DNA of 32,307 bases. It comes from Atractiella rhizophila (Eukaryota). The notes beneath the pieces were generated by a model. The model saw only the letters and a program-made list of their open reading frames with translations, was not told the DNA's origin and did no database searches. The first letter of the stretch is position 1. The number at the start of each line of letters is the position of its first letter. The translations under genes and the position numbers were made by a program. Of the stretch, positions 1-30,837 are shown in pieces. The stretch is from assembly GCA_021432655.1 (NCBI GenBank), contig MU271684.1, positions 1 through 32,307 of the forward strand, given 5' to 3'.

Positions 1-922
1 CCTGGTGGCAAGGCAGGAAAATGCGCAGAGTGTCAGGAATTCCTGGAGCGGTTCATGGGCTTGACTAAGAGCACAAAGGTGGAACTTGCCATGCGGCTCT
101 TGAAGAAGTTCCAAAGTGAAGGGGAGGCGAATGGAAAGGTCTATAAGACCATAATTTTCTCGCAGTTTACCCAAATGCTTGAGATCCTCCAACCTTTCCT
201 CGAAGCTGCCGATATTGGCTTTACCAGATGTCAGTGATTCGCTAAATTATATACTCTGTGCGTCCCGAGAGCCAACCTCTTTGAGATAGTGGACGGCAAA
301 ATGAAGAGGGAACAACGTGAAGTTGCTCTGGACGCTTTCAAAACAGATCCGTCTACAGTTGTTCTACTCGCGTCATTGAAAGTATGCAGTTCTCTCCATA
401 TCACGACCAAAGCTGACAGTGCCTCCAGTGCGGCTCAGTTGGTCTGAACCTTACTGCCGCTTGCAGGGTCATCCTTTTTGACCTTTGGTTTGTCTTCTCC
501 ACTGCTTTTGTGGGTGAATTAATTTTAAATCAGGTGGAATCCTGGTTTGTCCTACGTTTTGCATAGCTTGCGTTACTGATGTCGTAAATCTGGCAGCCAT
601 CGAAGAGCAGGGTAAGCTTGTTTCGAACTTCCTTGCACTTAATCTACAAATGACAAATTATCCTTAGCTTTCGATCGCGTCCATCGTATTGGACAGACGG
701 AAAAAGTGCAAGTTTATAAACTTGTCGTCGAAAGTACAGTCGAAGGTTTGATTATGTTACTATCGCATTCCGTGACTAACACCAATTTATATAGAACGCA
801 TCTTGGAGCTACAAGAGAAGAAGCGGGAGATTGCTAGCGCAGCTCTGTCTGGCGAAGGAGCGGCCAAACTCAATAAATTGTCTACTCAAGACATCCTCTT
901 CCTCTTCAAGCGGGATGAGTAG
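1..922 (+). CDS. SNF2-family DNA-dependent ATPase/helicase, C-terminal part (Rad5/Rad16/Uls1-like), 5'-truncated by the window
   Basis: Spliced translation: CAEC...STK...KTIIFSQFTQML...DGKMKREQR...[43 protein letters not shown]...YKLVVESTVEERILELQEKKR...DILFLFKRDE*. These are canonical HELICc motifs. Micro-exons at 534-544 and 597-611; stop TAG 920-922. Confidence 0.93.
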
Positions 923-1199: not shown

Positions 1200-3158
1200 T
1201 CAATTGCGGGTACTCAGCATGACCCTATTCAAGCATGCTACCTTTGCTTGACCAGACAGCCAGAATTTCGTGAGAGCGAACAGAGCTTTCGTCGCCTCTC
1301 TTCTCCCCTCTTGTGTACCCAGTTCGTATTCCTCGCTCTGAATAAGATAAACGTATTGATCCATGGGCAAGACTGAACTAGTTCCGGTTGTAGCAGCAAG
1401 TAAGAGTTCTTGAGGGAAAAAGGCAACGGAGATGTGGAGACGTGTGAAAGCCAAGCACAAGGCGTAAGCCTATGGTGAAGATAACTATGCAGCATCCAGA
1501 TATTTTGAAGGTACACTCACCTCTTGATCCTGCATTCCATACTGTTTCACATTGGCTGCCACCTGCGAAAGCATCGTTCCGATTTCCTCCCCATAATACT
1601 TTGGTGAAGGTCCCTCCAAAATCTTGGGCATTGAAGAAGCATCTAGCACATCATTGCTGGAGCCTCTTCGTGAAGGTGGGCGGCTGCTTCCTGTCCCTTC
1701 TGTGTAAGGTGTTGAGCACTATACATATAGTCGTCAGAACCCAGGTTAAACATTAGGCGATGACCTTGTACCTTTGAAATGAACGAAGCTACAGGAACTT
1801 CTTCTTCAATATTCCTTTCCTCTCCGTTCAAGCATACTTCACGGTTCAAGGGGACACTCCAAGTAACTCCTCCGAATACAAAACTGCGCTCCTTCTTCTT
1901 ATTCATTTTCATGGTTTTGCTGCGTATTGAGAACGCAATATCAGAAAGGAAATTTAAAATAAAAACTCGAGCTTACACAGATTCCGTGAACAAGGATATC
2001 TTGTATGTTTCGGCCAGAAGTTCGAATATCGGGTCAGTCATTCCTGCCAATAAAGCCTGACCCTGAAGTCTGTGCATGGAACCACCGCCAACCGCCAGCG
2101 ACAAACTTTGTATGGCATCGTCGAACACGTTGTTCTTGAGGTCAATCTTCATCTTTGGATTCTCGAGTTCTTCAAGCGTGGGCCGCCCAATGTCGTCAAC
2201 ATATTTCTGTTCGACTAAGCTTTGCGGCATTAAAAGGGGTCAACAAAGGTAGATGAAACAATATACCATCTGTGAGGTGAAAAAATTGAGAGGGTAGGAT
2301 CCTTTGTAAGGGTATACCGGACATGGGAACCACACGACAGGCTTTGATGTGATCGTGGTTCCAATGTTCAACATTCCGGTCGTGGTTGCGCCAGTCAAGG
2401 GCGGGAAGTCCCTCCATGCGGTAAGAGGAATATTCGATAAAGAAAGGATTCTGAGTGGCCTCTTCTTGAAGCGTCGTATCAAAGATTAAATTACTTTTTG
2501 TCGAGGGGAAGGGAAAAGTTGAGGTAGTCCCTATCGCTGGAGGCCTGTTCGCATCTGAAGATTGTATTAGGCCCATACAACCTATGTGAGGACACACACC
2601 TAGCACTAATTTGGAATCTTCCAGCAGCGGAAGCAGTGCGACTGCTCGGATTAAACGTAATGCCAGCTCATCTTTCCCTCCCGAGGTATCTTTCGTGTAA
2701 GGTTCTAACCTTTTCTGCAAGGGCCTCAGATATGGAGCTTGGAAAAAGAGAAAATGAGACATACCTTTAGTTCAGTCACCTTTAAAGACATGTAATGTTG
2801 TTTTAATCGCATGAGGAGCACATTTTTCGTCCCCCATGTTGACAATGAGTCCAATATTAATAGTTCCTGATTAGAATTCAGTATTTTAACTCGGGATAAA
2901 TGTTCCTACCTTCAATCGCTTCACTTTCAGCCCACGGAGCTGAGAAGAGGTGAGACCGGAGGTTTGTGCGCCTTTCAGAAATGTCTGTTTAGAATGACTT
3001 TGTGACCGCAAACTACGAGCTTGATTTGGATTTTCACGAGCTTTCTCGACAATCTCCTCAAGTAAGTCTGATTGTGGTAAACTCATGACGCGCCGAACTG
3101 CTCGACGAGAGCCTGTATCCACCTCCAAAGCTCGGAGTCTCTTTCGCGGCGTCCGCAT
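1200..3158 (-). CDS. Uncharacterised protein with two tandem SAP-like motifs and a putative inactive PD-(D/E)xK-like domain (family copy A, apparently intact)
   Basis: ATG 3158; exons 3158-2910, 2866-2765, then 2714 onward, with GT-AG introns. Spliced: LRGLKVKRLKELLILDSLSTWGTKNVLLMRL and YMSLKVTELKKRLEPYTKDTSGGKDELALRL (SAP pattern), then EHWNHDHIKACRVVP, FGGVTW, PVASFISK, PKYYGEEIGTMLSQ, DQEAY.LCLAFTRLH...QSEEYELGTQEGRREA. Clear homology to the copies at 22.5 kb and 25.1 kb. Confidence 0.8.
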
Positions 3159-3786
3159 GAGAAACGGCAATTTCGGCTTATAACAATGTGGTATCGTGGG
3201 CACTATAATAAGCCAGTTAATCAGGTAAATCGCACGTTTGGATATGTTGCTTACAAGCACCATCGACGAGGCGTCGACAACTGAGAAAAGAACCAGAGTT
3301 AGAGTTATGTTGTTCCATCAATGCCAATCAAGTTGCATCAATATTGCTTGTCACGTGATATGTCAACACCTCTTGAACTGCATGGCTAGATGAGCTGCTA
3401 GATGAGACGCATAGCATTCCTCCTTTGCCAGGCTGATTGGTCGCTGGTTTCGTTTTTCCGCATCGTTCATATTTTTCTGGTGGTGCAACGCTTGGGCGCT
3501 GTGAGTGACACAAATGGTCAGACACCTCTTTGGATCTTTGAAGGTTTGGAGAGAAGTCTTTGCCCATGCCCCATCCTGACGCGAGCGTAGCGATTTGAAT
3601 TGTTCCCGCTCATCTACCTGATCCCTTTCTACCTGGAGAGTGGAGGCTCCGTTAGAAGTCTTGTTGAACTTTGTTGACTTGTGTTGACATGGACGCGTCT
3701 GACCTTAACCAAGCCATGAGATTTAAAGCTCTTACCTCATACTCTCAATCTACCTCGTTTCTCTAGAAAGCAAGAAAGGCGACCTG

Positions 3787-5968
3787 ATGACTGTGAGGGA
3801 TAAAACTTCCAAAAAGCCTCTCGCAATGGCTTCGAAGGACCAAGGGGAAGAAAACAAGGTGTCTCCAGAGTCCGCACTGGAGGGACCCAGTGCGTTACTC
3901 CTACATTGGGGTTGGGTTGTATTACTAATGCCCGTTAATTTCAAGGGAGACAGGGTATTGCTGAGGCGTTACAGTTGCCATCAACGAGTAAGTCAACCCG
4001 AGTCTTCCAATGGTCATTCTAACAAATCGTGAACAGTAACCGAGACATATGTCGTATCTTGTTGGTTTCCGCACTCCGACCAGACCGAATACTGACATTC
4101 AGATCAGCGGAAAGCCCATACAAACGACAGAAAAGACACGAGCGCTTCTATGACCATCTGACGGAGGGAAGTTGGACTAAAGAAGCCTGGAAATTTTATT
4201 CAGACAAGGCCACCGTCAAGCCAACTCTGCTTGGAACAATTGGAGGCAATAGTATCTCGAAATTCTTCGTTAGCGGGAGCGAATGGAATAAAGACCACTG
4301 TGCTATGCTGAGGGCGGTCCCTCATTTTAGAGTCAAAATGACTGCGCATCCCTTTGCTAATTTGGAGAAGCCTGATGGGCAATTCGTCAAGAGACGAGAT
4401 GAGAGTACGTTTTTGGGTTGCCTTTAGCACGTCCCAATGGACTGCTTAATTTTAGGTTTTTACGCATACCTCGGTCATATCGCTGGAATGTTCTCAAAGG
4501 GAAAGTTCGTCCCTATCAATCCCAACAATCGCAATACTCCATACGCTATTTCTGTTCTCAGCGATGCTCTGAAGGAAGCGACCTGTCCCACGGTTCCAGA
4601 ACGAATCACTCCTCTCTCACCTGAGGTGTCTCTGCTGCATATGGACGCTCTAGCGGGACTACCAAGTTGCGCGAAAGGAAGCCCTCCTGAGGAGGAAGAG
4701 CCAGATGAAGATGAAGGAGAAGCAGAAACCGAGGTAGCTGGCACTCCAGATTATCGTCTCCAGGTGTGGATTGAGCATGGCAAACGGGTGCTGAAAGTGG
4801 TGCCATGTTCGAAGGAAGCTCCATTGAAACCGCATCCTCTCCATCAATCAGACACCCAGGAACACCTCTTTGAGGACGTTTGTCACGCTTTTGTTCAACT
4901 TGCTCTTTTCGCTTTGGGCTTTGTTCCTGGAGCGGAAAATACGTTGCGGCCGAAGCGTGCTCCAGACTGGTGGATTTCTGGCTGGACTAGAAATGTTTCA
5001 TTTTTTTGCGAGTACGTTATCTATCTCCAATGTTATCGATATTTCTCCCTAAAGTGGATCCCACAGTAAAATTCATCACACCTATCACTGGGTTATGGGT
5101 CCTCCGACCGACCTAGTTAGTAAGGACGACCACAACAAAGAGGTACACAAGAAGTTACGCTGGACCTGTGTTGACGACGGCGGGTTAATCCTGGCCAAAA
5201 ACGTTGCACCTAACGACAATAATGGAAGGCAAAAAATGGAGTGGTTGGTACTGATGCCTTTTGAAGTGCGTATTTTTGCATTTGCTGGCAATATTTGATG
5301 ATGCAAGATAGGTCAAGAAGAAAGGTGTCAAGCCAATGACAGTTTATCCGCAACACCTCGCAGAGCTGCTAGCTGTTGCCCTTCGCCGATACGCGCCGTC
5401 TGAACAGCTGAGACTATTGGACAAGGAAAACTTCAAAGACGAGATGGTGAGCAAAACGTCCGAATCTTACACTGATGCTGAAGAGTCTCAGGTGTATCTT
5501 CTGGCTCTTCATGGCACCAAAATGCACTTTGTCAATGCAACTTTCACTGGTGACTACTTGTACAAGGTGGTGAACGACATCGACATTGGTAATCTTCATG
5601 TGGATGTCTACCACTCTGAAGAATTCGACCTTCTCAAGCATGACGAGTGTTTGACAGGTTTTAACCATCTCTGCAAGGTTATCTGCCATCTAGCAGATCC
5701 TGAAGCGGTGGTCAGCTCGAAAGTTCTTCGCCACTATGGCCCATATGCTTACCATGTTAACGAAAAATGCCTCGGCGACATCTTCAAGATTATCCCCAGG
5801 TTTACCACACCAACTATTCCCGCCTCTCATTCTCAAGGTTCCCAGCTTCCACTTGCACAGACGAAGATGTACTCCAGCCCGCCGGCAGGGAAACAGAGGC
5901 AGCCGATGTCGTCTGTCATAAACTCCAAGAGTCACTCCGCCAAAGGCCGAAAGAAGGGAAACCTGTGA
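3787..5968 (+). CDS. Putative PD-(D/E)xK restriction-endonuclease-like protein, distant paralog of the SAP-bearing family
   Basis: Multi-exon gene joining ORFs 3787, 4029, 4437, 5095 and 5336. Intron 5266-5311 joins PFE to VKKK in frame with ORF 5336, giving CVDDGGL...LMPFEVK...VYPQHLAELLA...QVYLLALHGTKMHFVNATF...HSEEFDL. The N-terminal block SEWNKDHCAMLRAVP is shared with the family. 5' exons and start are uncertain. Confidence 0.72.
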
Positions 5969-6643
5969 TGCCTGGATATTTTCTGGCAGAGTAACTCCAA
6001 TTCGAAGCCATGTTGTACCTTAGCCGCAAGCCAGCTATGCCTCCTATTTCGAGTTGAAGCTCACATGATATTCATTTGTATTCCAACACTGTCATGACCT
6101 TTACAAGATGTTACAGAACTTCAAACAACCATGAAGTCTAGAAAGTACGATGTTAACGTGTCTAACCTAGAATCTCAATCGCGTTCTCCGGGAAAGTCCT
6201 CTTAGGAGTGATGTTCTCACCTGCCTTGAGCTGACTGCTCAATCTCTCTCATCCTCGCCGTTATCCAAATCATTCAAAACAACATCAACAGTCAAGCGGT
6301 CACGGTTCGCTACCTTAGGCTGATGAATATTTGCAGCCAGAGGGACTGGAGCCATGGGTTGGGATGTGAGACGATGGAAGTGGAGGAAGTCATTTGGTCG
6401 CTGCATTGCCTATTGCAGGTGCATGGGTAGAAAGCTTGGCAGGCTGCATATGCACAGAAACTACGTTCTGATTATCGTATGAATAGATGGTCAAGGATGC
6501 AGAGAGGGGCCAATATACGGCATGAACGTTCGATGACCGAACACTCTTCTCGTTTCCTCCTCAATGAAGTCGACGCCTTCAGGTCTACATGACTCTCTTT
6601 TCGACATTACCATCACTCCTACGGATCTGCGATAAAAGTCTTA

Positions 6644-7050
6644 TCACGCGAGCGACTCTGGCTTCACCAAATAATCAGAACTTGATAACGCAAACAGCGC
6701 CATTGTGCTCACTCGGCTCCATTCCTGCGTTGCCAGCTCGTACCTCTCGCTTTGAAAGAGATAAATGAAACTGTCGCCGGAAAGGAGGGGCTTGGTGGTG
6801 GCGGCAATCAGATGGACTTGAGGGAAGAAAGCAGTGGGAATGTGTAGTCGTGTATGCGTCAAAGAAATGGTATATGCGTAACGAATTGGTGTAAGCTGGC
6901 ATATCGCACGACCTGAGAATGCAACGCTTAGCCCTGCATTCCGTATTTCTTTCACCTGGACTTGAGAAAGCATTGTTCCGAGTTCCCCTCTATAGTTTGA
7001 GTTAGGAACATCCCGCACATTTGAATCTGATGGATCAGCTGAAGAGGCTT
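6644..7050 (-). pseudogene. 3' fragment of the SAP/pseudo-nuclease family (copy D)
   Basis: Translates as NYRGELGTMLSQV..VKE and AYTISLTHTRLHIPTAFFPQ...YLFQSERYELATQE...ALFAL, homologous to the last two exons of copies A-C. The frame breaks after VKE and after ALFAL, and no upstream exons are recognisable. Confidence 0.8.
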
Positions 7051-7744
7051 TGGACAAGGAATAACAGGTCAAACAACATTTTGGCTGTTCCAAGGCTCGC
7101 TAATCCTGAGCAGTAGTGTATGCACCAAGGGTTTATGTATAGCGAGCTTCAACAAAAGGAGAATGCCTGTGTTACTTTATTTCCTTCAAAGAGGGAGACT
7201 TTGTTCCAATTGGCCATGACAACACAATGAAACTCATGCATTGAATCATCATCGACAAAAAAGGATGGATAGTTTGAAATATCAACAATCAACAATCAAC
7301 ATTTTAAAATTGTCCCATAGTACAGTAACTCACTCTGAACTCGGCGCAGAAAATTATTACAAGAGCCTTCAATCTCTCGTTCAGAAATACGATTACTACT
7401 AGTAGTAAACGGTAGTAACAATGCTGATCTTCTTCATCAAGGTCTTCATCATGATGAGGCATTCTGATGGAGTCAGGTGAACTTAAATACTCACAAGGAC
7501 GTTGCGCGCATTAGAAGCTAAAATATCCATTCACCAGGACTCATGGCGCTTGATAAGAAGCACTTTCGGTCCGGCATATAATTTTTCGTACTCTGGATTC
7601 GAGCTGAGGGTACACACAGGAAGTCCATTTTGTATTTCAACAATGTCGACGATTACATGTTACACAACTTGAAACAACCCACGGCCCGAAAATACGAATT
7701 ACAATACATATGTTACGATGTTCATGAAGTTCAGGCTTCTGAAC

Positions 7745-11521: not shown

Positions 11522-11630
11522 NNNNNNNNNNNNNNNNNNNNNNNNNNNNNNNNNNNNNNNNNNNNNNNNNNNNNNNNNNNNNNNNNNNNNNNNNNNNNNN
11601 NNNNNNNNNNNNNNNNNNNNNNNNNNNNNN
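11522..11630. other. Assembly gap (N run)
   Basis: 109 consecutive N. Confidence 1.
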
Positions 11631-12168
11631 TTGTTCACCTTCAACCTACGCAATCCGCCACCTACCCTCCCCAACCACCAAAGAAAACCTAAAACTAGTC
11701 TACTCTCATTCGACCCCTATTGTCACCTAGCTATCTGCTTTCATCTGCGTTCTTTGTTCTTATCAACACAGTTTACAGTTACAACCTGCCTCGTTTACTC
11801 TAAGTCTCTTACGTACTGCTACGTCTAGGCTCTATTCCAAGGACTGTTTGAAGTGTTGGACTGGTCGATTTGTTCGTTGAGTCGTCTTCTCGTCGGACAA
11901 GGTCGCAACAACGAACAGAATATGCGACATGGAAGTCGTCTGCAAAAGTATTGAATGCTCTGACCGTCGTCTGAGAGAATAAACTCGCTAGAGTGACGAT
12001 TCTTCTGGGTATAGTTCATTCAACAAGTGGAAGATCCTCCTCTCCTACCCACACCTGTGGGGAAAGTCTGAGTTTTTATCGTAACTCTATCGATTTTCTC
12101 GCTTTCAAACTATTTAACGTAAACGGATAAGTGAAGTGAAGTAAAGACAGCCAAGAAGCATCGACAGC

Positions 12169-15100
12169 ATGTCGGGTGTGGCGAGCGCAAACGCCAAAGT
12201 GGGCGTGGCGGAGGTGGTCAACACGTTCATGAAGCAGCGAAAGTCGCAGGATTCGGCTGGGCGCACCTCTGGGGAATCTCAGCGGAGTCCAGCTGAAAGT
12301 TCGAGTTCGAAGGAGAAGGAGAAGAAGGCCAGTCCTCCCCTGCCCAGCGTGTCTGAGGAGGAGAGAGGTGCGAGTTTGCACGTTGGTGATCGTGGTGGAC
12401 AATCTTCTGGGAAGGGGAAGGAGAGTGTGGATGGGAAGGGAAAGGGGAAGGCTGTCGATTACTTCTCCTCGCCTAGTCCAGGCACCGGTCCATTAGGTTC
12501 AGGTTCTGCCTTGACATCTGCATCTACATCTGCGTCTGCGCCAAAGATGGCACAATCACCATCACCCCTTTCCCTCTCCATCCCCACAACCACCTCACCC
12601 TCACCTCCTCGTCCCTCCCACATCTCCACCCTCTCCTCCCTCATCCCCCCATCCGCCACCACCCCCTCCACCTCTCCCTTCTCCCCCTTCTCGCCCGGCG
12701 CCCCATCCCCCATGCGCGGTCCCTTCACGCGCGCCGACAGCGAACGCGGCTCCCACATCTTGCGGTACGGCGATGTGCCATTGATTTCGACTCCGAGCAG
12801 GAGGAAGAGCTCGCTGGTCAATGTGTGGGGACATGGAGGACACGGCGGTGGGAGCGGGAGCGGGAGCGATGCAAGGAGACGGAGCCATTTGGGTACGGCC
12901 CCGGTCAGGATGGCGTCGGGGGAGAGCGCGGATATGGGAAGAGGTGCGGGTGTGGGTGCGGGTGCGAGGAGGGCAACGGAGGGAGATGCCATCTCGTCTG
13001 GCGGCGCTGGTGCTGGTGCTGGTGGTGCTGGTGCTGGTGGAGAGGGAGAAGGGAATCTGTTGACGAGGATATTGAGTGAAGAACCAGAAGACCACTTGCA
13101 CGGTCCCATCCTCCCCGGCCAAACCGGAGCTGGCTCTCAACCCGGTTCTCCAAAGGGATCACCGAAGGCGGATCGGGACTCGAGGCAGAATTCAAAGGAC
13201 TCTGGTGCAGTTGGAAAGGAGAGGACGGGGGCTGGAAGGGTGGGATGGAGCGCTATTAGGCAGAGGTTTGGACCGGAGAGGTGGAGCCAACATATCGACA
13301 ATAAGGATGACCCCTCCGCCTTCCTCTCGGGCGAAAACCTCCTCACTGACCTCACCGTACCCCTGTTGCCGCTTGCGATGTTGAAGATGAGTCTGACGGA
13401 TAGGGACGAGCACAATAAGAAGAGGATACCGATCCTCATGAATTATCTCAAGCTTAGGATCACGGATAGCGCGCACTCTTTGAGCCAACAACACGCTGTT
13501 TTTCGCATCGAACTCGAGTATGGAGATGGGCTCTTGAAGTGGGTCGTTTATAGGGAGATGGCCGACTTTTGGAACCTTCATGGGAGATATAAGGTCGCGA
13601 ACTTGAGACATGAGATTCCGAACTTGCCAGCGTTCCCAAAGATCGGTCTGCCGTATTGGAATTTGTTGAAGGGTGGAGGAGGCGGAGGAGGAGATGAAGA
13701 TGAAGAGGAGAGGGAGAAGCATATGCAGGAGATGGGGATGGGTGGGAAGGAGATCAGTAAGGAGAAATTCAATAGGATTCAGAGGGAAAGATTAGAGAAT
13801 TACCTCTTGAAACTCATTCGTGCTGTCGTAAGATCTTTTTCTTTTCCATCCTCGCCACGACAGATAATGACGATGTTACATCCAGATGTTCCGTCCGGAA
13901 GCCAACCGTCTCTGCAAGTTCCTCGAGATCTCCGCACTGTCCATACAGCTCGCAACCGCTGGAGCTGGGGCGTTCCAGGGCAAACAGGGCTACTTGTCTC
14001 TGCACGTTTCGGGTGGAAGTGGGAGTGGGATCTCGAGGAAGGGATTGAAGGGTTTTCATCCGATGCACTTCAAGAAGAAGCACGAGCCGAAATGGTTTCT
14101 GGTCAGGGAGAGCTACATCGTTTGCGTGGACGAACCAGACGACGTACGTTCCCTTCCTTTTTTGCGTGAACGTATTTGAATGGGGAATGATGACTTGATA
14201 GCCGACGATTTACGATGTCATCCTCATCGACTCGGATTTCGTCATTGAACGCCCCAAGCGATTGTACAAGCAAGGTCTCCATCTGTTGCAGCACCACAAG
14301 GACGAGAAGACGACTCCTTTCACAGAAGACTTGAAGTCCGACACAGCGACTACCAGCACCAGTCCAGTCGCCACAGGGAAGTCGGGCGACTCTGCCACCT
14401 TCAACGGTGCAGAGGATCCCGCGGATCCTTCCACCACGAACTCGGCGCCGGCGAAGAAGAAGGCGGTTCGAGACGCGTCGTCCCATACCTTTTACGTGAA
14501 GAACTCGGAACGTCGTCTGAGACTGGTGGCGAAGAATGAGAGGCAGATGGACCAGTTTGTGGCTAGCATTGAGATGATGGCGAAGAGGTCGATTTGGGCG
14601 GGGAAGAATAGGTTCGATTCGTTCGCTCCGATTAGGATGAATGTGGAGGCCCAGTGGTTGGTTGATGGGAGGGATTACTTTTGGAACCTCAGTAAGGCTA
14701 TACTGATGGCTAAGGAATCGATTTAGTGGGCTAACCTTCTCGCTTTGGCTTGCTTGGAAGTACTGATGGGTGGATAGTATCCATGATTGGTGGCTCTCGC
14801 CGGAGCTATACTTAAGACGACCGCCGGCTGCTAATGGTGCGACTTCATCTGAGATATGTGATGGACACTGACTGAATGGATGAACAGAAAAATGGAGACT
14901 TGATCATCTGTTACAACGAAAAGCAAAGGAAGGAGTGAAGATCTTCGTCATTGTCTATAAGGAAGTCTCCAATGACTTCACGTATGTTCAACACGTTCCT
15001 GCTGCTGATCTAGGCTAAAAAATATGCAGGCCTGTGGAGTCCAATTATACCAAAACGCGTCTCTTGGGACTTCATCGGAACATTCACGTCCAACGGTCTC

Positions 15101-18100
15101 CTTCACACGGACTGACACCTCAATTCTGGTCCCATGTATGTTTTCTTGAATACCACATGTGGATTCAGCTTATAAGGATGTTGCGTGTTCAGCATGAGAA
15201 GATGTGCGTTATTGACCAAACGATTGCATTCATGGGGGGCCTCGATCTTTGTTTTGGACGATGGGATACCCCAGGTCACGTTCTGATCGATGATGGGCCG
15301 ACGGGGATGGGGATGGCGCGTGAAGAGATCCCTGACGATGTCCAAATCTGGACTGGGAAAGATTATTCGAACGGGAGAGTGTCGGACTTCTTTACTCTTT
15401 CGAAGCCAGAAGAAGATATGTACGACCGGAACAAGGTACCGCGTCAGCCATGGTGCGCAAGTTCGCCCTCAAAACGGTGATATTCTAATAGAATGTTAAG
15501 GCACGACATTGGGCTCCAGCTTGTTGGACAACCAGCAAGGGATCTCTGTCGCCATTTTGTGCAGAGATGGAACTACCTACTTCGGACCAAGAATCATACC
15601 CGTCTCATGCCGTTCCTCCTCCCTCCTGCAGATTTCACACCTCTCGAATTAGCCCAGAAGAGGATCTTTGGTACCTGCGAAGCTCAAATCTGCCGGTCTG
15701 CAAGCCCATGGTCTATTGGGACACCGAACAAGGTGGAGCATTCCATTCAGACGGCTTACATCAAGGCCATCCAACTTAGCGATCACTTCGTCTACATCGG
15801 TATGCCTGTGATCCCTCCCTTCTCACGCGTTAACTGGTCCATACACTACAGAAAATCAATTCTTCATCTCTTCCACTCTCGTGGAAGGTGTTGTTATCGA
15901 GAACAAGATTGGCGATGCTTTGGTGAGCAGGATCATCCGCGCTCATCATGAAGGGACGGCGTGGCGGTAAGCTCAGGTATAGTTGTACAATTCCGACTGA
16001 TAACACGAGGTAGTGCCATCATCGTCATCCCTCTCGAGCCTGGATATCCTGCCTCACTTGACTCGGCAGAGGCTGGTTCTGTCCGTCTCATCCTCGAATG
16101 TCAGAATCGCACTATCTGCCGTGGGCAACACTCGATTTTCGGACGTCTTAGGAAGGAGGGCATTGATCCGGATGAGTACATCACCTTTTTCGGCTTGCGA
16201 GGTTGGGGCAAGCTAAAGAATGGCTGCTTAACGTCTGAAGCTGTGAGCCACTTTCCCGCCATAGCCGATTGAACTGACCCTGGGGATAATGTAGATCTAC
16301 ATTCATGCCAAGGTACATTCCTCTTCTTCCCTGGATTTCCATATTAAGGCTTTGATAGTGCATGGTCGTCGACGACAGGGTTGCCATCATCGGCTCCGCT
16401 AACATCAATGAACGCTCACAACGTGGCGACCGCGATTCTGAACTTGCCTGCGTCATTCGCGATACAGACATGATGGAGTCAACCATGGGGGGCCGTCCTT
16501 ATCAAGTTGGAAGATTTGCTCACTCCCTTCGAGTCCGTCTCATGAGGGAGCACCTTGGGATTGACACGGATGAGATGGAGGCGCGCGAATTAGGCCTCGA
16601 TGTTCGCTCGAGAGATTCAATCAAATCCTCTCAAGCCCATAGCACCCATAGTGCGCCGTGGGATCCAGATCGCGAACAGCAACAAGGTATGCACGAGACG
16701 CAGAAGCATGGACATGTCAAAGGCCAAGCGGAACAGGCGAAGCATACGGCTCGTCATGTTGCTCACGAAATTGCCAATGTAGCTGCAATCGAGTCGGATC
16801 GAGCTGCTCAGGAATTTGCGGATGGTTCGAGGAAGGCTGAAGATGAGGTGGGAAAGGAAGTTCATCGCAGGGACAGCGGAGTGAAGACGGAGGGGGAAAG
16901 AATTGCAGACGGAGAACTTGGAGAGAAGGGTTATGCTGGTACAGTGGTGCCAACTTTGGAAGAGAAGGTAATCGCTGAAGGCCGGCCCTCAGTCACTTCC
17001 GACAAGTCAAAGGAGGATCAGAGCGTTCGCAATACTGAGTCGAAAGATGGTGTTTCTGTGGAGGCTCATTCGGATGCCGATAGAGTGCTAGAATCGGGAC
17101 AAACTACGCCATCCAATCCGAGACAGAAGGAAGGTATCAACCAAGTCCATCCTGAGTCTGACGACGTTCGCAAGTTCAGTAAAGAAGGAGATTCGATAGC
17201 ACCAGAAATTCAAAAAGTCGACGGCACCGCAAAAATCATGGATAAAAAGGCGCCGTCAGAGATAGTCGACGCCGCTCGACCTCCTTTCGAAGATCCTGGC
17301 CCGGAGGCAAAAGAACCTAAGAAGTCAAAAAACCCAGGTCTCAATCTTCATATTCCAGAAAGCCATGGGAGAGATCGCAGCGCTTCAGTTGCCTCAAACG
17401 CATCCACGTCCGGTCGACTTAACGAGAAACTTGCGAATCACAATAGCATCAACAACCGTCTTCGTTCCAATATTCGTCAACCTTTCTATTCCGTCCCTCT
17501 TCCTCGGCCACAGGTTCATGCCAACGGGTTTGACGATCCTCTTGACGATTCCTTCTTCAAGGATGTTTGGCTCGCAAGTGCGGTTAGAAACACAGAAATC
17601 TTTCGAAAGGTCTTCCGCTGCATGCCCGACGACTTAGTCATGACCTGGTCACAATTTCGAGACTGGCAGAAGTACATGGACAAGCACAATAGACCTGCTA
17701 AAGGACAAGCAGAGCCCCCTGCCACCGCAAACGCGTCGACTGTCAACATCGAAGTCCAACCTCCACCGAGCGAGAAGAGCAGCGCGATGCAATCTGAGGA
17801 AGATCTTGACACAAAGCGCAATCGAACGATCAGTATGGGAACAGCGATTAGTGGTCCAGGAGGAGAAGATATGCAAGGTAACCCTACGACGACGAGTCAA
17901 GGTCAGCAGTCGAATCCAGATCATGGTCACAAGAAGGAAGCGACACAGAACCAAACGAAGGACAAGAAGACGAAGAATCAGCCTCAAGTGGAGGGATTCC
18001 CACAGGAGGAAAGGGATCAAATGGAGGCGCTCCTGGATGAAGTTATCGGGCAGTTGGTAATATACCCCACCAGGTAGGTCTTGCGTCCTTCGGAATGACA

Positions 18101-20577: not shown

Positions 20578-21842
20578 ATGTTGTTCATCAGTTATCTCCT
20601 GGTAGCGCTTCCTCTCGCATCCGCGCTGTCTCTGGCAAACCTTTGGAAGAGAGCCACGACGTGGACACTCTCGACTACTTTCAAGACAGTGGATGAGTTT
20701 GCCGCTAGTATAGACATCCGAACATGGGCTTACGGTAAAGAACGAGCAGGTGTCGCGAGCGGGATTGGTGGAGAGAGGTGAGTGTTCTCAGTAACATCGC
20801 ACCTTCATTATCACCGATTATTTGTGTTCAGTGCGCAGAGTAAGGCCCTTCTTCATGACTTTGTGGACGAATACCAAGCGGTTGGGATTAGGTTTTTCCA
20901 TTTTCTACCCTAAAGGTACTTGGAATCCTAGTGATGGCAATGGCGGAACGGGTTTCTATGCCCACCCATTGGCATTGGGAGCAGCAAAGAACATTACATT
21001 CGAGTACTCGGTATGAACAGCCGACTCCAAACAAACAGTGATATTGATGCCTATGCAACAGGTTTATTTTCCCTCCGATTTCGACTTCGTCAAAGGCGGA
21101 AAACTCCCTGGGTTGTACGGGGGAAGGCAGAGTTGTTCTGGGGGTGATCCAGCTACTGATTGCTTCAGGTAGGCAGCTACCTTCGTACATTGTTTACGAC
21201 AGAAACGCCGTGTTGATTGGATGTTTCAGTACAAGGATGATGTGGAGGACCGCTGGGGCAGGTGAAGTGAGTCGCCCCTTTAAGTGAAAAAGCTTCTGCT
21301 CTAACATCGTGTTAGATGTATTTGTACGTGCCAAGGGACAAACAAGCTGCCAATATCTGCGCGATGGCCTGGTCTGGTTGCGACACGACGGACGGTATCA
21401 GGTTCACAATATCTCGTCCTACTCCCCATGCGCGAGTCCTGACTTCTTTCCGGTGTAGTATTTCTCGAGGCAGTTTCACGTTCAAGAAGGGTGCTTGGAA
21501 TAAAATTCGCCAAGATATTGTCCTCAACACTCCGGGCAAACAAGACGGAGGCTTCACCATATGGTTCAATGACAAAGCGGTCAGTCATGCCGACAGCGGT
21601 GTACGTCCTTCACTACCCGACCAGTGCAGACCATCATGGACGTTGGATAGGTTTACTACAGAAGCGTGAGCAGCGTCGCTACCATTGGTATTCAATGGGA
21701 ATCCTTCTTTGGTGGAAGCGACTCTTGTAAGCCCTTCTTTCCAATGGTTGCCAATCTTACATCTTTACCAATAATAGCTTGGGCAACTCCCAAAGACACT
21801 TTCACTTACTACACTCGTGCTCGTGTTACCATTAACTCTTAG
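20578..21842 (+). CDS. Secreted polysaccharide lyase family 14 protein (alginate/glucuronan lyase-like)
   Basis: Hydrophobic signal peptide MLFISYLLVALPLASA. Spliced motifs FYPKGTWNP, GGTGFYA, YSVYFPSDFDFVKGGKLPGLYGG, CFSTRMMWR..GAGEMYLYVP, RGSFTFKKGAW, VLNTPGKQDG, FFGGSDSSWATPKD. Stop TAG 21840-21842. Confidence 0.9.
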
Positions 21843-22487: not shown

Positions 22488-24283
22488 ATGGGACTACTAC
22501 AACTTGCTCGGAGAGCGAAGGACGAAAGATCTTCATCGAGCAAGAATGTGTTGACTGCACAAGTGCCCAAGGTCACGGTGCGAAGCCTACGAGTAAGCAG
22601 AAAATCCAATTGTTACTACATGATGGTCAGCTGTTCTTTAGATTCTTCTGAAGTCAGAATTACTCTCAACGTTAGGAAGAAAGAATGTGCTCATTTCGCG
22701 GTTGAGAAAGCATTACAAGTCTATGAAGGTTATCAAATTGAAGGTAGGATGTTTAGCCTAGTAGAATTTTGAGCTTGATGGTGTCATAGAAACGTCTGAA
22801 TCGCCATACAACCGAACTTGTTCGCGGGAAGCAGGGTCTAGTGAATCGCTTGATTGAAGAAATCAGCTCGTCAGCCACTAGTAGAATATGGCCGGGCTAT
22901 TCAAGGTATGAATCAACGTGTTACTCCATCGTCGCACAATTGTATTCATTACCAGAGAATTTAGACAAAGAGCAGGCTCGAAAGGCTTCTGCTCTCGCTG
23001 GCATCACGTTCCCTTCACCCAAGCAGACCCATTTACGTTTGACCTACTGGATTACGACGCGATTTCTCGAAATTCGTTCTTGCAAGAGTATATATATCGC
23101 AAGGTGGAAGAACTTCCCGCCCTTGACGGTCAGAATCATTCTTCAAAAGAGCGGGTCATGAATGTTCAGCAGTGGACGGACGACCACATCAAATCATGCC
23201 GAGCCATACCCATCTGCGGCGTGCCGTTGCAAGACTTCCTCCCTGCTCAACTTTTCGAGCTGTCCGAAGGTGAAGATCTTTCCTTTTCTGTCAATTTACC
23301 AATGTCCGAGTATTAGTTGAACTCAGCTATGTTGACGACTTTTCTCGTCCAACATTGGAAGAGCTTTCACGCCGGGATATCGCAATTGACTTAAGAGGCA
23401 ACAAGCTTAGTGCCGCTATTGAAGGATTGTCATTGGCCATCGGCTCTGGCAACATAGGAACAGCGCGAGGTCAAGCTATTCTGACCGGAATGACACATCC
23501 AATTTTTGAGCTTCTGGCAGAAAAGTATAAAGTTTTATTCAAAACATTGTCTCTGTGAGCTTCCTTCCCTCCTCGGTATTCTATCTTCCAACTTTTGGTT
23601 GATCAGCCGCGATCGACAGAACAAGGAAGACCGCATATTTTTGGCCGGCGGCATTATTTGGAAAGTCCCTCAACACCGGCAGGTTGTTGTGGAAGAGCCA
23701 GACGGTGACCTGGAGAATGAACTACCCATAGCTTCATTCATTTCGAAAATTTCAAAAGTAAGACATGTACACTCTATTCTAGTGAAGATGTTTTTAACAA
23801 GATTCGAAGCTCTCAGAGGTTTCTTTGAATGGCTCCACAGTACCAACGTCGTCCAAAATCTTGACGGGTCCTTCTCCTACATATTATGGGGAAGAAATTG
23901 GCACCATGCTTTCACAAGTCTCACAAAATGTGAAGGAATTCGGCATGCAAGATCAGGAGGTTGACTTACTTCCTGGCTCATGATCCATTTGCTGATTAAT
24001 ATGGCAGACTTACACCCTTTCACTGATTTACACCCGTCTTCACATTTCTGCTGCATTCTTCCCTCAGGATCTTTTACTCGTTGCCGCTTCGGGCACCAAC
24101 CCAATCCTCCCTGCCGATCGATACGTTTATCTCGTGCAGAGTGAGGAATACGAATTGGCAACGCAAGAAGGGAGACGAGAGGCTCTCCAAGCGGTGTTCG
24201 CGCTGACAAAATTCTGGTTGTCTGGCCGAGCCAGAGTTGCACGATTAAATAAAGCATTATCATCTATAGCTGGTGATGATTGA
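22488..24283 (+). CDS. Tandem-SAP plus pseudo-nuclease family copy B (apparent 1-nt frameshift near 23039)
   Basis: Exons 22488-22592, 22642-22743 and 22790 onward give KVTVRSLRILLKSELLSTLGRKNVLISRLRKHYKSMKVIKLKKRLNRHTTELVRGKQGLVNRL. Then QQWTDDHIKSCRAIP, AGGIIW, PIASFISK, PTYYGEEIGTMLSQ and QSEEYELATQEGRREA; stop TGA 24281-24283. Confidence 0.72.
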
Positions 24284-25120: not shown

Positions 25121-26892
25121 ATGCGATTTGATTAGAGAGCAACGGGAACAGGAGCTGCATCCAGCAGAAAGACTATAGTAACTACACGCGTCCCTGACAC
25201 TACTATACAGAGCTTACCAGTAGGCATAATATATATATATATGCGTAATTCTTTAGATTGCGCTGAAGTCAGAATTACTTTCGACGTCAGGTTCAAGACC
25301 GTGCTACTCCTCTCTCGATCGAGAAAGCATTACAAGTCCACGAAACCTACCAAATTGGAAGTAGCACCATCTCTTTTCATTCTTGACTTGTGAGTTTGAT
25401 GGGTTTCGTCACAGGAACATCTGAGTCGCCATACAGCTTGATTGGGGGCAATCAGGACCTTCTGGATCGTTTGATTGAGAAAGCATCCCGGATTTCATTT
25501 TTCAACAACGACGGGATGATTCACGGTGCGACCCGACATAAAAAGGTCAATTCTGTTGAAAACGTTTTGGGGGAGAAGACCCAGACTCAGGAGAGTCTTG
25601 CAGTTGCCGTGCCACCCATTCACTTCCCTTCGCCGAGGCAGACGAGTTTGCGCTTTGACCTGCTTGACCATGAACAATTGCTTCAAAATCCGTTCCTGCA
25701 GGAATATACCTCTCTTCGAGTGGAAGATCTCCCTGCCTTTGACAGTCGCAATCATGCTCGACAAGAGCGAGCAGTTGACGTGGAGCACTGGACGGAAGAT
25801 CACGTCAAATCTTGCCGCGCTGTTCCCTTCCCTGGCGTCGACTTACAGAAACTTCTTGGTGCTCGTTACTTTGAGCTGACCCATGGTACCGTAGTCCATT
25901 TGCTTTAACCAATTTATCTGATCTAGAGGGATCAGACGAGCAGGGATATGTCGACGACTTCGCCCGTCATACGCTAGAGGAACTTACCGACCCAGAAACT
26001 CACATTGATATTAGGCGCAACAAGTTCAGAGGTGCACTTGAAGGATTATCAATGTGCCTCTCCTCTGGCTGCACAGAGAAAGAGCAAGGTCAAGCCATTC
26101 TGGCCGAAATAACAGAACCGATTTTTCAACTTTTGGCGGCGAAACATCAGGTGTCATTTACATCAATATCCTTGTGAGCTGTATTTCTCGGTGGTGAAGA
26201 TGTCATCTCCTGAATAGCTGTTATAAGTCACGAACGACGGAAGAATGGAGATCGCAAATTTTCGGCTGGAGGCATCGTTTGGAAGGTTCCTGAGCATCGG
26301 GAAGTGCTCGTGGAAGAACATGAAGGTGATCTCGAGAACGAGGTACCAGTGGCTTCATTTATTTCGAAAGTAACACATGTCTTCCCGTTCCCTCGAGACG
26401 TTATTTGACATAACTCCTAGTTTCCAAAGCGCGAGTCGGCTGTAATGCCATCTTCCACTAGACACAACCTCTGGACAGGACCGTCCCCTACGTACCATGG
26501 AGAGGAAATCGGTACTATGCTTTCACAGGTATCAGCAAATCTGAAAGAATTTGGCATGCAGGATCAGGAGGTTGATCGCTTCTTCTCATTTGCAATATCC
26601 TCACTCATCAATCTGCTAGGCGTACACACTTTCACTGACCTTCACTCGTCTTCACATCTCCATTGCCTTTTTCCCTCAGGACGCCCTACTACGTGCCACA
26701 TCTGGCAGTGATCCAATTCTCCCTGCAGATCGATACATATATCTCCTTCAAAGTGAGGAATACGAATTAGGGACACAAGAAGGCAGGCGAGACGCTGTTA
26801 AAGCCGTGTTTGCACTGACGAAATTTTGGTTGTCTGGTGAAGCCAGAGTGGCACGTTTGAATAAAGCTTTGACACCTAATCGGAGTGGTTGA
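25121..26892 (+). pseudogene. Family copy C: SAP exons disrupted, C-terminal domain intact (pseudogene, or N-truncated gene from ATG 25399)
   Basis: The homologous ATG 25121 is followed by in-frame TAG 25133-25135, with frameshifts near 25293 and 25436. From 25399 the exons read open: EHWTEDHVKSCRAVP, AGGIVW, PVASFISK, PTYHGEEIGTMLSQ, QSEEYELGTQEGRRDA; stop TGA 26890-26892. Confidence 0.7.
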
Positions 26893-30200: not shown

Positions 30201-30837
30201 AGAGAGTTCCTTGATGACGAGATAGACCATTTGTCGAAGTGAAGGATCCTTGTGGTGGAATAGCTTTGTGCATCCGAAGAAAAGAGTGGTTGCTTCGTGC
30301 GAACTGAAGGTCTCTCCGACATAGAGGAGGTAGATGATTTTGGTGAGTACTATACGACATCTGCGCGCTGAAATCGGACTGTAGAAGAGAAGCATCAGTA
30401 TGTTATACGGCAATCCTTTGTGTATTCCATCTGCTGTCATCAACAGCACTATTCTCGTTTATTCGGTGCAAGTTCCATCCAGACACAGTGGTGTACCAAA
30501 GGATTTGGACTAAGGCTGACTATAAGTGGCTCGCATAGAGAACTGGGATGCATTGTCTATTCCTTGGACTGCCAACAGCCTCGTTTGCTCACTGTCATGC
30601 CACATTGATGATGTAAATCAACGGACTCTTCGCCTTTTCGAAAGACTACAAATCAACGGCATTACGCTTCTCTCCTTGTGTGTGTTTTACGAACTGGCCC
30701 ACTGGAGCCCCCTTCCCACGATGCTCAAGAACGCAGAAAACTCACGACTCGTTAAAAACCCTTGCCTCCTGCAGAACCGTGGTTTTATCCTGCAGGAAGC
30801 TACCAACATGACTCTCTCCATCTTTCTTGGACGCCAT
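27231..30837 (-). CDS. SEC21: Coatomer subunit gamma (gamma-COP)
   Basis: [39 protein letters not shown]..., [91 protein letters not shown]. Confidence 0.97.

Follow-up and report, generated by a model that had tools for sequence, protein, structure and literature searches.

Old, diverged paralogs head to head in Atractiella rhizophila: a gene with a nuclease-type motif pattern and a SAP-bearing relative

Gene pair and related copies at the locus

In a window of 32,307 nucleotides from Atractiella rhizophila, which is the whole stretch of DNA analysed here, two eight-exon genes (A on the minus strand and B on the plus strand; Table 1) were found to diverge from each other, with 628 bp between their start codons according to splice mapping. 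This agrees with the head-to-head layout and the spacer of about 630 bp described in an earlier note on this DNA. A repeat check of the spacer gave nothing notable, and the spacer may hold a bidirectional promoter.

Within 27 kb of the window, five members of the superfamily formed by these genes were present: B itself and four of the A type, of which three are full genes and one is a relic. The relic was matched by the A-family HMM at o6647_7099 (E = 3.8e-30, profile positions 348–463) and at o6588_6674 (E = 0.19). In the third A-type copy the core exons were open and the first SAP motif looked degraded. Scanning of the window by tblastn and HMM revealed no further B-type exon. No transposon hallmarks were seen, and the only window repeats of at least 40 nt were the paralogs themselves. 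The flanking genes were ordinary ones (phospholipase D, PL14 lyase and coatomer gamma).

A phmmer search with P0001 (the product of B) against 1.84 billion representatives returned four proteins at E ≤ 1e-3, all of them from A. rhizophila; the B family comprises P0001, P0003, P0004 and P0005, which are 26–28% identical. The A-family search, which covered proteins of 294–937 aa sharing words with the query, returned three proteins (P0002, P0006 and P0007), again all from A. rhizophila, and two metagenome scans yielded no homologues. Within the searches made, both families are restricted to this species.

Table 1. Coordinates of the two genes, their motifs and related copies in the window
Feature	Position	Strand	Basis
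Gene A: P0002, BT69DRAFT_1356009, 535 aa	3158→1200	minus	database protein mapped letter for letter onto window
Gene A exons (n = 8)	3158-2910, 2866-2765, 2714-2600, 2554-2267, 2214-1977, 1919-1772, 1718-1521, 1469-1200	minus	exact splice mapping
Two tandem SAP motifs of A, residues ~74-109 and 111-141, exons 1-3	2637..2939	minus	Pfam PF02037; limits of second motif set by eye
Core of A common to B, exons 4-8, residues about 156-535, from W-x-x-D-H...R-x-V-P block to C-terminus	1200..2554	minus	hhalign, B-family HMM, Atlas
I378-S379-K380 of A, opposite E-x-K of B; intron directly after	1772..1780	minus	global profile alignment, exon map
A-B spacer, 628 bp, putative shared promoter region	3159..3786	.	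exon maps
Gene B: P0001, BT69DRAFT_1356010, 610 aa	3787→5968	plus	database protein mapped letter for letter onto window
Gene B exons (n = 8)	3787-3889, 3946-3987, 4037-4060, 4108-4404, 4456-5011, 5067-5265, 5312-5446, 5492-5968	plus	exact splice mapping
D378 codon of B (V-D-D-G-G-L-I-L-A), candidate first acidic motif residue	5176..5178	plus	D378, G379 invariant in 4/4 B-family members
E-x-K of B, split by intron 6: E407 5263-5265 (last codon of exon 6), 46-nt intron, V408-K409 5312-5317	5263..5317	plus	E407, K409 invariant in 4/4
Q421-H-L-A424-E425 of B, conserved helix, 12 residues past K409	5351..5365	plus	Q421, A424, E425 invariant in B family; E425 in 7/7 A- and B-type
A-type relic, C-terminal third only, last piece in another frame, tail-to-tail with B	6588..7099	minus	tblastn, A-family HMM
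A-type paralog P0006, BT69DRAFT_1303145, 483 aa, eight exons, last four intron phases 1,2,0,0, without B-type neighbour	22488..24283	plus	splice map, HMM
Third A-type copy, tandem duplicate of P0006, period ~2.6 kb, without B-type neighbour	25157..26892	plus	tblastn, repeat families D1-D4, HMM

Genes A and B are old, diverged paralogs

Direct BLASTP comparison of the spliced A and B models was not significant (best HSP of 13 aa, 21.2 bits, E = 0.12). Alignments of the B family (n = 4) and the A family (n = 3), compared by hhalign, gave two colinear local matches (84 columns, P = 6.3e-4; 19 columns, P = 4.1e-3), and the global A/B profile alignment of the core extended over 185 columns (P = 0.0012). 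Column shuffling gave scores no higher than 25.1 in 118 of 120 runs, as against observed scores of 36.9 and 31.1; the remaining two scored about 135.9, and one of these, re-run and inspected, was a 16-column end-of-template artefact. A B-family HMM run over the 842 stop-to-stop ORFs of the window placed four A-type exons right behind the exons of B itself (E = 0.0048–0.035), with the matches colinear in HMM profile positions and A-type exons making up seven of the 11 non-B rows; within the core of A, the matches fell in the 2199–2771 and 1203–1469 exons.

Similarity beyond chance was accompanied by a shared gene structure. The last four introns have phases 1, 2, 0 and 0 in A, B and P0006 alike, with intron 7 in the identical alignment column in all three genes and intron 5 within three columns. 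Moreover, four ESM Atlas structural-neighbour clusters were common to the A and B proteins, the Atlas structural alignments covering residues 164–535 of A. The paralogy proposed in the earlier note is thus borne out by hhalign, by HMM ranking among the ORFs and by intron phases and positions.

All six colinear blocks quoted in that note could be found in the gene products: the W..DH....R.VP block (WNHDHIKACRVVP in A, WNKDHCAMLRAVP in B), the GG block (FVFGGV in A, VDDGGL in B), the K block (SFISK in A, PFEVK in B, the latter interrupted by an intron between E and V), YYGEEIGTMLS of A with YPQHLAELLA of B, a fifth pair (EAYALCLAFTRLHISVAFF in A, VYLLALHGTKMHFVNATF in B) and QSEEYEL of A with HSEEFDL of B. 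Their pairing stood in part: the global profile alignment placed E407 and K409 of B opposite I378 and K380 of A, as had been claimed, but the match of DDGGL with FGGV is doubtful, because R-x-F-x-x-G-G of A pairs with T-x-W-V-M-G-G of B and not with DDGG.

Motifs and predicted fold of the two products

Seven residues (D378, G379, E407, K409, Q421, A424 and E425) were invariant in all four B-family members, an invariance of limited weight because the families are tiny (four B and three A sequences). In the low-confidence AlphaFold model of B, DSSP assigned a helix at 288–308, strands at 348–408, a helix at 421–432 and strands at 451–470, with D378-G379 and E407-x-K409 in or adjoining strands 373–386 and 398–408. 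At the level of sequence, then, B has an acidic strand residue and a (D/E)-x-K motif in the order helix, strand opening with D-G, strand ending in E-x-K and helix with Q at K+12. The pattern appears typical of PD-(D/E)xK nucleases of the RecB/HsdR/lambda-exonuclease type (HSDR_N, PF04313; lambda-exonuclease/YqaJ; Cas4), in which D-strand, E-x-K strand and Q-helix follow in the same order; EcoR124I HsdR has D151, E165, K167 and Q179, the Q lying at K+12 as in B. Unlike these, B has Q-x-x-A-E in place of Q-x-x-x-Y, contains long inserts and bears an additional W-x-x-D-H block at its N-terminal side, and it is eukaryotic and confined to one species.

None of the searches with B produced a significant profile match to a PD-(D/E)xK family. 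No such family, the RecB/HsdR type included, matched at E ≤ 10 in Pfam, where only LPD7, Ribosomal_60s and DUF1684 were returned; NCBIfam, PADLOC and PHROGs held nothing relevant to a restriction-endonuclease fold, and the PDB sequence and profile search gave 0 matches. AlphaFold (AF2) models of the two proteins were unusable (pLDDT 34.2 and 35.9). Foldseek with the B model was likewise non-significant (best E = 0.16, TM ≤ 0.30). About 20 of the 43 rows listed for B were Cas4, RecU, Hjc, MGME1, HincII, CidB, SPARDA, tRNA-endonuclease and a putative exonuclease (3l0a), with Cas4, RecU and MGME1 crowding the list, whereas the equally poor A model had no such nuclease entries among the matches listed.

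ESM Atlas neighbours of B included a cluster with 54% HSDR_N (TM by row 0.78), aligned with B over 207 of the cluster's 212 residues, and clusters carrying PDDEXK_12 (PF20516; TM by row 0.46) and DUF7924 (PF25545; 0.51), all scores for named families lying below the bar and the Atlas models themselves being weak (pLDDT 0.49 and 0.61). The DUF7924 cluster (163 members) was common to P0002, also under the bar (TM by row 0.50). None of the seven A/B proteins matched PDDEXK_12 or DUF7924 in Pfam at E ≤ 10. The best Atlas neighbours were unnamed clusters, plus clusters with kinase families in other parts.

From these weak leads, a restriction-endonuclease-like fold of B is plausible but unproven; of the fold assignment made in the earlier note, the motif conservation in B stood, and significant support from profile, PDB and Foldseek searches was missing. 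The case shows that family libraries and shallow-alignment structure prediction serve small, fast-evolving families poorly. Across the seven proteins of both families the invariant residues were E425, H464 and F470, and the D/E/K triad was not among them. Together with the non-significant profile and structure searches and the nature of the top Atlas neighbours, this would fit a shared core of another alpha/beta fold, in which D...E-x-K is coincidental and both families are non-enzymatic, for example chromatin- or DNA-associated. We consider this rather unlikely, given that 4/4 very divergent paralogs conserve both strands (D-G and E-x-K) and the Q at +12 in the right secondary-structure order, that the Foldseek list was rich in nucleases for B and not for A, and that the HSDR_N cluster aligned over so much of its length. 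We infer from the motif pattern that B may be a metal-dependent nuclease, and its location is probably nuclear because it carries basic patches of the KRQKRH- and KGRKKG-type.

The product of A was confirmed as SAP-bearing, with PF02037 above gathering score (E = 3.8e-7, 30 bits versus a cutoff of 23.9) in two stretches, the best at residues 74–109, and with SAP present in 3/3 A-family members. It was also catalytically substituted, as had been proposed: I378-S379-K380 aligns with E407-V-K409, the profile alignment contains no counterpart of D378 of B, and the D...(D/E)-x-K triad is therefore absent from A. Within the A family, I378 and S379 were invariant and K380 was replaced by R in P0007 (K/K/R, n = 3), leaving I-S-K/R where B keeps E-x-K. 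Judged by these residues, A cannot cut by the canonical mechanism.

Pairing and turnover of the two families

Among the three full-length A-type genes of the window, gene A was the only one with a B-type neighbour. P0007, the one other A-type gene known, is carried by a 74,494-bp contig, which differs in length from the contigs of P0003, P0004 and P0005 (11,051, 42,137 and 19,776 bp, respectively). The pairing did not recur in a comparison that covered the window and P0007, the neighbours of P0003–P0005 lying outside it, and the co-regulated two-gene module envisaged in the earlier note was not supported. The adjacency of A and B is explained by local duplication, which puts paralogs side by side.

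A functional pair, in which an active nuclease B and a dead, SAP-bearing A form a heterodimer targeting or restraining the nuclease, or a toxin/antidote-like cassette, under a shared promoter in the 628-bp spacer, therefore seems unlikely. Such a pair would be consistent with the divergent arrangement, with paralogs of which B kept the motif and A lost it, and with the W-N-x-D-H...R-x-V-P block, in which P0001 is closer to the A-type proteins than its own paralog P0003 is. MUS81-EME1 is an active nuclease joined to an inactive paralog partner. In RecB-RecC and XPF-ERCC1 one member likewise keeps the catalytic residues and its paralog loses them, and the PD-(D/E)XK superfamily is described as containing both nucleases and inactive homologs, the latter serving DNA binding or scaffolding (PMC3424549). 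However, those pairs are conserved repair proteins with established complexes, whereas a complex of A and B would be hypothetical, their genes are species-restricted, and the inactive A type is multi-copy and mostly unpaired. Furthermore, A-type genes outnumber B-type genes locally, and local duplication yields adjacent paralogs anyway.

A split killer and protector appears highly improbable. Here B would be an HsdR/Spok-type DNA-cutting toxin, the SAP-bearing dead A an in-trans antidote or targeting subunit and the spare A-type copies orphan antidotes left after toxin loss, together giving a basidiomycete a cassette of selfish or allorecognition type; adjacency is at present the one argument for it. 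The A/B case by itself opens no long-standing question, and a toxin/antidote system would have wider interest. SPOK proteins of Podospora, compared here by their published description, are similarly fungal and multi-copy, and among the Atlas neighbours of A and B there are clusters in which kinase families also occur. Domain 2 of SPOK is described as a predicted PD-(D/E)XK nuclease needed for killing; in SPOK3, HsdR is its best HHpred match and K240A abolishes killing, nuclease and antidote kinase are united in one polypeptide, and homologs are described in Ascomycota (PMC6660238). SPOK1 is reported to act on DNA (PMC9972908). In contrast, no kinase domain was found in the seven A/B proteins at Pfam E ≤ 10, and none of them combined nuclease and kinase in one protein.

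More broadly, the superfamily could be selfish or of fast turnover, like Spok-type killers or the copy-number-variable DUF7924, with the locus as an expansion site. Its multiple copies, which in this single window include a tandem duplicate and a decayed relic, the lack of homologues found outside one species and the predicted HsdR-like domain of SPOK3 all point this way, as do Atlas structural neighbours that are patchy by taxon (Mollusca, Ascomycota, Mucoromycota and Zoopagomycota). DUF7924, one of those neighbours, is listed among the most copy-number-divergent families of the Neurospora crassa pangenome (PMC13412767). We nevertheless regard this as distinctly improbable in view of the missing transposon hallmarks, the window repeats limited to paralogs, the ordinary flanks, the lack of a kinase or other known antidote domain in either family and the purifying selection on A-type copies.

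On balance we lean, by a modest measure, towards diverged paralogs in a locally expanded, Atractiella-restricted superfamily, B being nuclease-type and A non-catalytic. One gene superfamily would have expanded at this locus by local duplication, its four-gene B subfamily retaining the nuclease-type motif pattern and with it metal-dependent nuclease activity. The larger A subfamily would have acquired two SAP motifs for DNA binding, and its acidic residues would have been lost, leaving I-S-K/R for E-x-K, and the head-to-head layout would be the leftover of an inverted local duplication rather than the sign of a two-gene machine. If B is a nuclease, the B family would add a species-restricted branch to the fungal restriction-endonuclease-like superfamily, and the locus would offer a clean natural case in which an active paralog adjoins an inactivated one and their common origin can still be read from gene structure. 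A may have been retained in a non-catalytic DNA- or chromatin-binding role, because A-type genes are kept by purifying selection: dN/dS between the tandem A-type copies was about 0.13 (0.147/1.117; last exon, third copy versus P0006).

Gene models and family copies in the window

The window DNA is eukaryotic in character, with short GT-AG introns and an absence of bacterial-style ORFs; a bacterial-type promoter scan was set aside, its outcome being meaningless in a fungal host. Gene A (the SAP-bearing P0002, annotated as ‘hypothetical protein BT69DRAFT_1356009’) and gene B (P0001, carrying the candidate nuclease motif; BT69DRAFT_1356010) have consecutive GenBank numbers in Atractiella rhizophila. 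Exact mapping gave 628 bp between their start codons, in agreement with the divergent pair and ~630-bp spacer described in the earlier note, and no notable repeat was seen in that spacer. All six short sequence blocks previously matched between the genes were found in the protein products of A and B, and the differences between hand-built and annotated models (in gene B, small N-terminal exons and a 45-nt in-frame intron; in gene A, one intron) fell outside these blocks. The E-V-K triplet of gene B is interrupted by intron 6, and the string ‘QVYLL’, also quoted in that note, turned out to be the product of unspliced reading across intron 7. Intron 7 (5447–5491, plus strand) is 45 nt long, a multiple of three, and stop-free; the frame would be kept if it were retained, and a stop-to-stop ORF at 5312–5968 (+) runs through it unbroken.

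Five superfamily members were found in the window: B, A, the A-type gene P0006, its tandem duplicate and a C-terminal relic. Window repeats other than these paralogs themselves were not detected, and the genes flanking the A/B locus are ordinary.

Features of the window, with coordinates, strand and basis of assignment
Feature	Coordinates	Strand	Basis or remarks
Putative SNF2-type helicase, C-terminal end	1–840	+	By eye; no Pfam match on short exon pieces
Gene A (P0002, 535 aa)	3158 to 1200	-	8 exons; protein matched letter for letter to DNA
Gene B (P0001, 610 aa)	3787 to 5968	+	8 exons; protein matched letter for letter to DNA
A-type relic, C-terminal third only	6588–7099	-	Decayed; tail-to-tail with gene B
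Phospholipase D	12145–18077	+	PLDc motifs
Polysaccharide lyase family 14 (PL14) fragment	21316–21669	+	
P0006, A-type gene	22488–24283	+	tblastn, HMM
Tandem duplicate of P0006, A-type	~25157–26892	+	Period ~2612 bp; 72–86% identity in repeat blocks
Coatomer gamma	27482–30458	-	Adaptin_N, COP-gamma_platf

The last exon of the tandem A-type copies showed purifying selection (dN/dS 0.147/1.117). The protein search did not recover the duplicate of P0006, in which the first SAP motif appears to have decayed. The relic carries an in-frame insertion at the paralogs’ intron site, and its last piece lies in a different frame. A run of 109 Ns (11522–11630) marks an assembly gap inside a proline- and serine-rich stretch.

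Distribution and paralogy of the A-type and B-type families

A phmmer search of P0001 against 1,835,955,588 representative proteins returned four at E ≤ 1e-3, namely P0001 itself, P0003 (532 aa), P0004 (241 aa) and P0005 (279 aa), the last three being A. rhizophila hypothetical proteins from contigs other than the window’s, with 26–28% identity to P0001. Residues D378, G379, E407, K409, Q421, A424 and E425 lie within the 21 invariant columns of this B-type family. The A-family search, which covered proteins of 294–937 aa having words in common with the query, recovered P0002 and P0006 from this window and P0007 from another contig, all of A. rhizophila. Exon-based protein searches found only the genes themselves (one of 1144 candidates and one of 569), and metagenome scans produced 281 pattern matches with the A-family alignment and 505 with the B-family alignment, none of which was confirmed by tblastn. 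The SAP domain (PF02037) was present in three of three A-type proteins (E 3.8e-7, score exceeding the gathering score), and at the position of B’s E-x-K these proteins share an invariant I-S, the next residue being K in two of them and R in P0007. The description of A as SAP-bearing and devoid of the catalytic-type residues that B possesses was upheld.

Pairwise BLASTP between A and B was unconvincing (best HSP 13 residues, E 0.12), and A-versus-B HSPs among all seven family members reached best E values of 0.016–0.64, repeatedly in the same two regions. Profile–profile comparison by hhalign, with four sequences in the B-family alignment and three in the A-family alignment, gave two colinear local matches: one of 84 columns (P 6.3e-4), spanning the S-E-E-[FY]-[DE]-L block together with the C-terminal hairpin, and one of 19 columns over W-N-x-D-H...R-x-V-P (P 4.1e-3). 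Column shuffling of the A alignment (120 shuffles) gave scores no higher than 25.1 in 118 cases, below the 36.9 and 31.1 of the real matches; the remaining two reached ~135.9, and one of them, when re-run, consisted of 16 columns at 13% identity at the template’s end. This inspected score was treated as a program artefact. Global alignment of the A and B core profiles covered 185 columns (P 0.0012).

When the window’s 842 stop-to-stop ORFs (25 aa or longer) were ranked with the B-family HMM, four A-type exons followed directly after B’s own exons (E 0.0048, 0.012, 0.031 and 0.035) in colinear profile positions, and A-type exons made up 7 of the 11 non-B rows; reciprocally, two B exons fell within the first three non-A rows of the A-family HMM (E 0.4 and 0.91). 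The last four introns have phases 1, 2, 0, 0 in A, B and P0006 alike. In the seven-sequence alignment intron 7 occupies an identical column in all three genes and the positions of intron 5 are at most three columns apart; intron 6 of A and B differs by two residues in the profile alignment, and intron 4 falls 31 residues (A) or 39 residues (B) past the conserved W. ESM Atlas models of P0001 and P0002 had four structural-neighbour clusters in common: a mollusc cluster (426 aa, 71 members), an ascomycete cluster (534 aa, 107 members), a DUF7924 cluster (163 members) and a further cluster (426 aa, 116 members) with Pkinase_fungal elsewhere in its members. Because profile–profile matches, HMM ranking, gene structure and shared structural neighbours all agree, we regard the paralogy of A and B, as originally proposed, as settled.

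One block pairing had to be revised: DDGGL of gene B had been set against FGGV of gene A, and the profile alignment instead places R-x-F-x-x-G-G of A against T-x-W-V-M-G-G of B. In that alignment the segment bearing D378 in gene B is apparently missing from gene A. MAFFT alignment of the seven proteins paired the W-x-D-H block of the A-type proteins with a stretch found only in P0001, around residue 260; this was rejected, as hhalign and intron 4 favour the block at 116. Residues ~258–275 of P0001 (window ~4770–4825) form a second W-I-E-H...K-V-V-P stretch, missing from the paralog P0003, which may be an internal duplication or a chance likeness.

Evidence for a possible nuclease fold in gene B

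Library searches were largely silent. Pfam, applied to exon pieces and whole proteins, returned nothing besides SAP; NCBIfam gave only Rex in P0007, scoring 17 bits where the cutoff is 233; PADLOC gave no match; and the three PHROGs matches were to families of unknown function (E 0.14–0.43). Sequence searches of the PDB yielded only GspJ for P0001 (E 0.43) and nothing for P0002 or the B-family profile. AlphaFold models built from shallow family alignments were unusable (pLDDT 34.2 and 35.9), and the Foldseek check proposed earlier for both proteins gave no match at E ≤ 0.001 (best E 0.16); three-dimensional comparisons using these models amount to noise.

The conserved B pattern consists of a D-G opening a strand, an E-x-K ending a strand and a helix with Q 12 residues on, an arrangement which we take to fit enzymes of the RecB, HsdR and lambda-exonuclease type. 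Secondary structure in the low-confidence B model runs in the order helix, strands, helix, hairpin. Atlas neighbours of P0001 included clusters with PDDEXK_12 and HSDR_N, all flagged ‘under the bar’; for the HSDR_N cluster, likewise so flagged, 207 of 212 residues were aligned with a TM of 0.78 by row. About 20 of the 43 rows listed in the non-significant Foldseek search of B were Cas4, RecU, Hjc, MGME1, HincII, CidB, SPARDA, tRNA-endonuclease or a putative exonuclease (3l0a), the folds being assigned by entry title; no such entry was among the matches listed for the equally poor model of A. The case for B having a restriction-endonuclease-like core is circumstantial, and we rate a nuclease fold in gene B as somewhat better than an even chance. 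The restriction-endonuclease fold proposed in the earlier note stands as likely rather than proven, with the motif pattern and the HSDR_N and PDDEXK_12 neighbours in its favour and the lack of a library or PDB match against it.

Kinase-carrying Atlas clusters also raised a kinase-like reading of B, with K409 as the beta-3 lysine and E425 as the helix-C glutamate. This was rejected: no kinase HMM matched, the aligned parts of those clusters fall outside the kinase families, and the ~100 residues past the hairpin are fewer than a kinase C-lobe needs. The best Atlas neighbours of P0001 and P0002 were clusters without a name, drawn from molluscs, ascomycetes and Mucoromycota, as well as clusters that also contain fungal-type kinase families beyond the aligned region. 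This pattern hints at a broader, unnamed family of domains whose members may sometimes adjoin kinases.

Known systems and the origin of the divergent arrangement

The PD-(D/E)XK superfamily is known to comprise nucleases plus inactive homologs, for instance RecB/RecC and XPF acting with ERCC1 (PMC3424549). Podospora SPOK3 is likewise reported to kill via a predicted HsdR-like PD-(D/E)XK domain, with a kinase domain of the same protein conferring resistance (PMC6660238), DNA is given as the target on which SPOK1 acts (PMC9972908), and DUF7924 is placed among the most copy-number-variable families of the Neurospora crassa pangenome (PMC13412767). SPOK3 has a kinase domain, whereas A and B are without one, and RecB/RecC, XPF/ERCC1, SPOK and DUF7924 have no detectable sequence tie to A and B, the resemblance being in kind only. 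The A/B pair was not found in literature on PDDEXK, fungal nuclease paralogs and Spok, a scope that cannot show absence from print. Overall, A and B are species-restricted representatives of an already known general kind.

The earlier note had read the pair as a co-regulated nuclease and pseudo-nuclease module, such as a toxin/antidote, a targeting partner or a selfish or defence cassette. This reading was unsupported, a B-type neighbour being present at just one of the three full A-type genes in the window; the other two are without one, because neither tblastn nor the B-family HMM found a further B-type exon anywhere in the window. Outside the window, P0007, a fourth A-type gene, belongs to a contig of 74,494 bp, and the B-type genes P0003, P0004 and P0005 belong to contigs of 11,051, 42,137 and 19,776 bp. 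The simplest account of the A/B arrangement is local duplication: one copy would have been inverted, inside an expanding lineage-specific family, leaving A and B adjacent.
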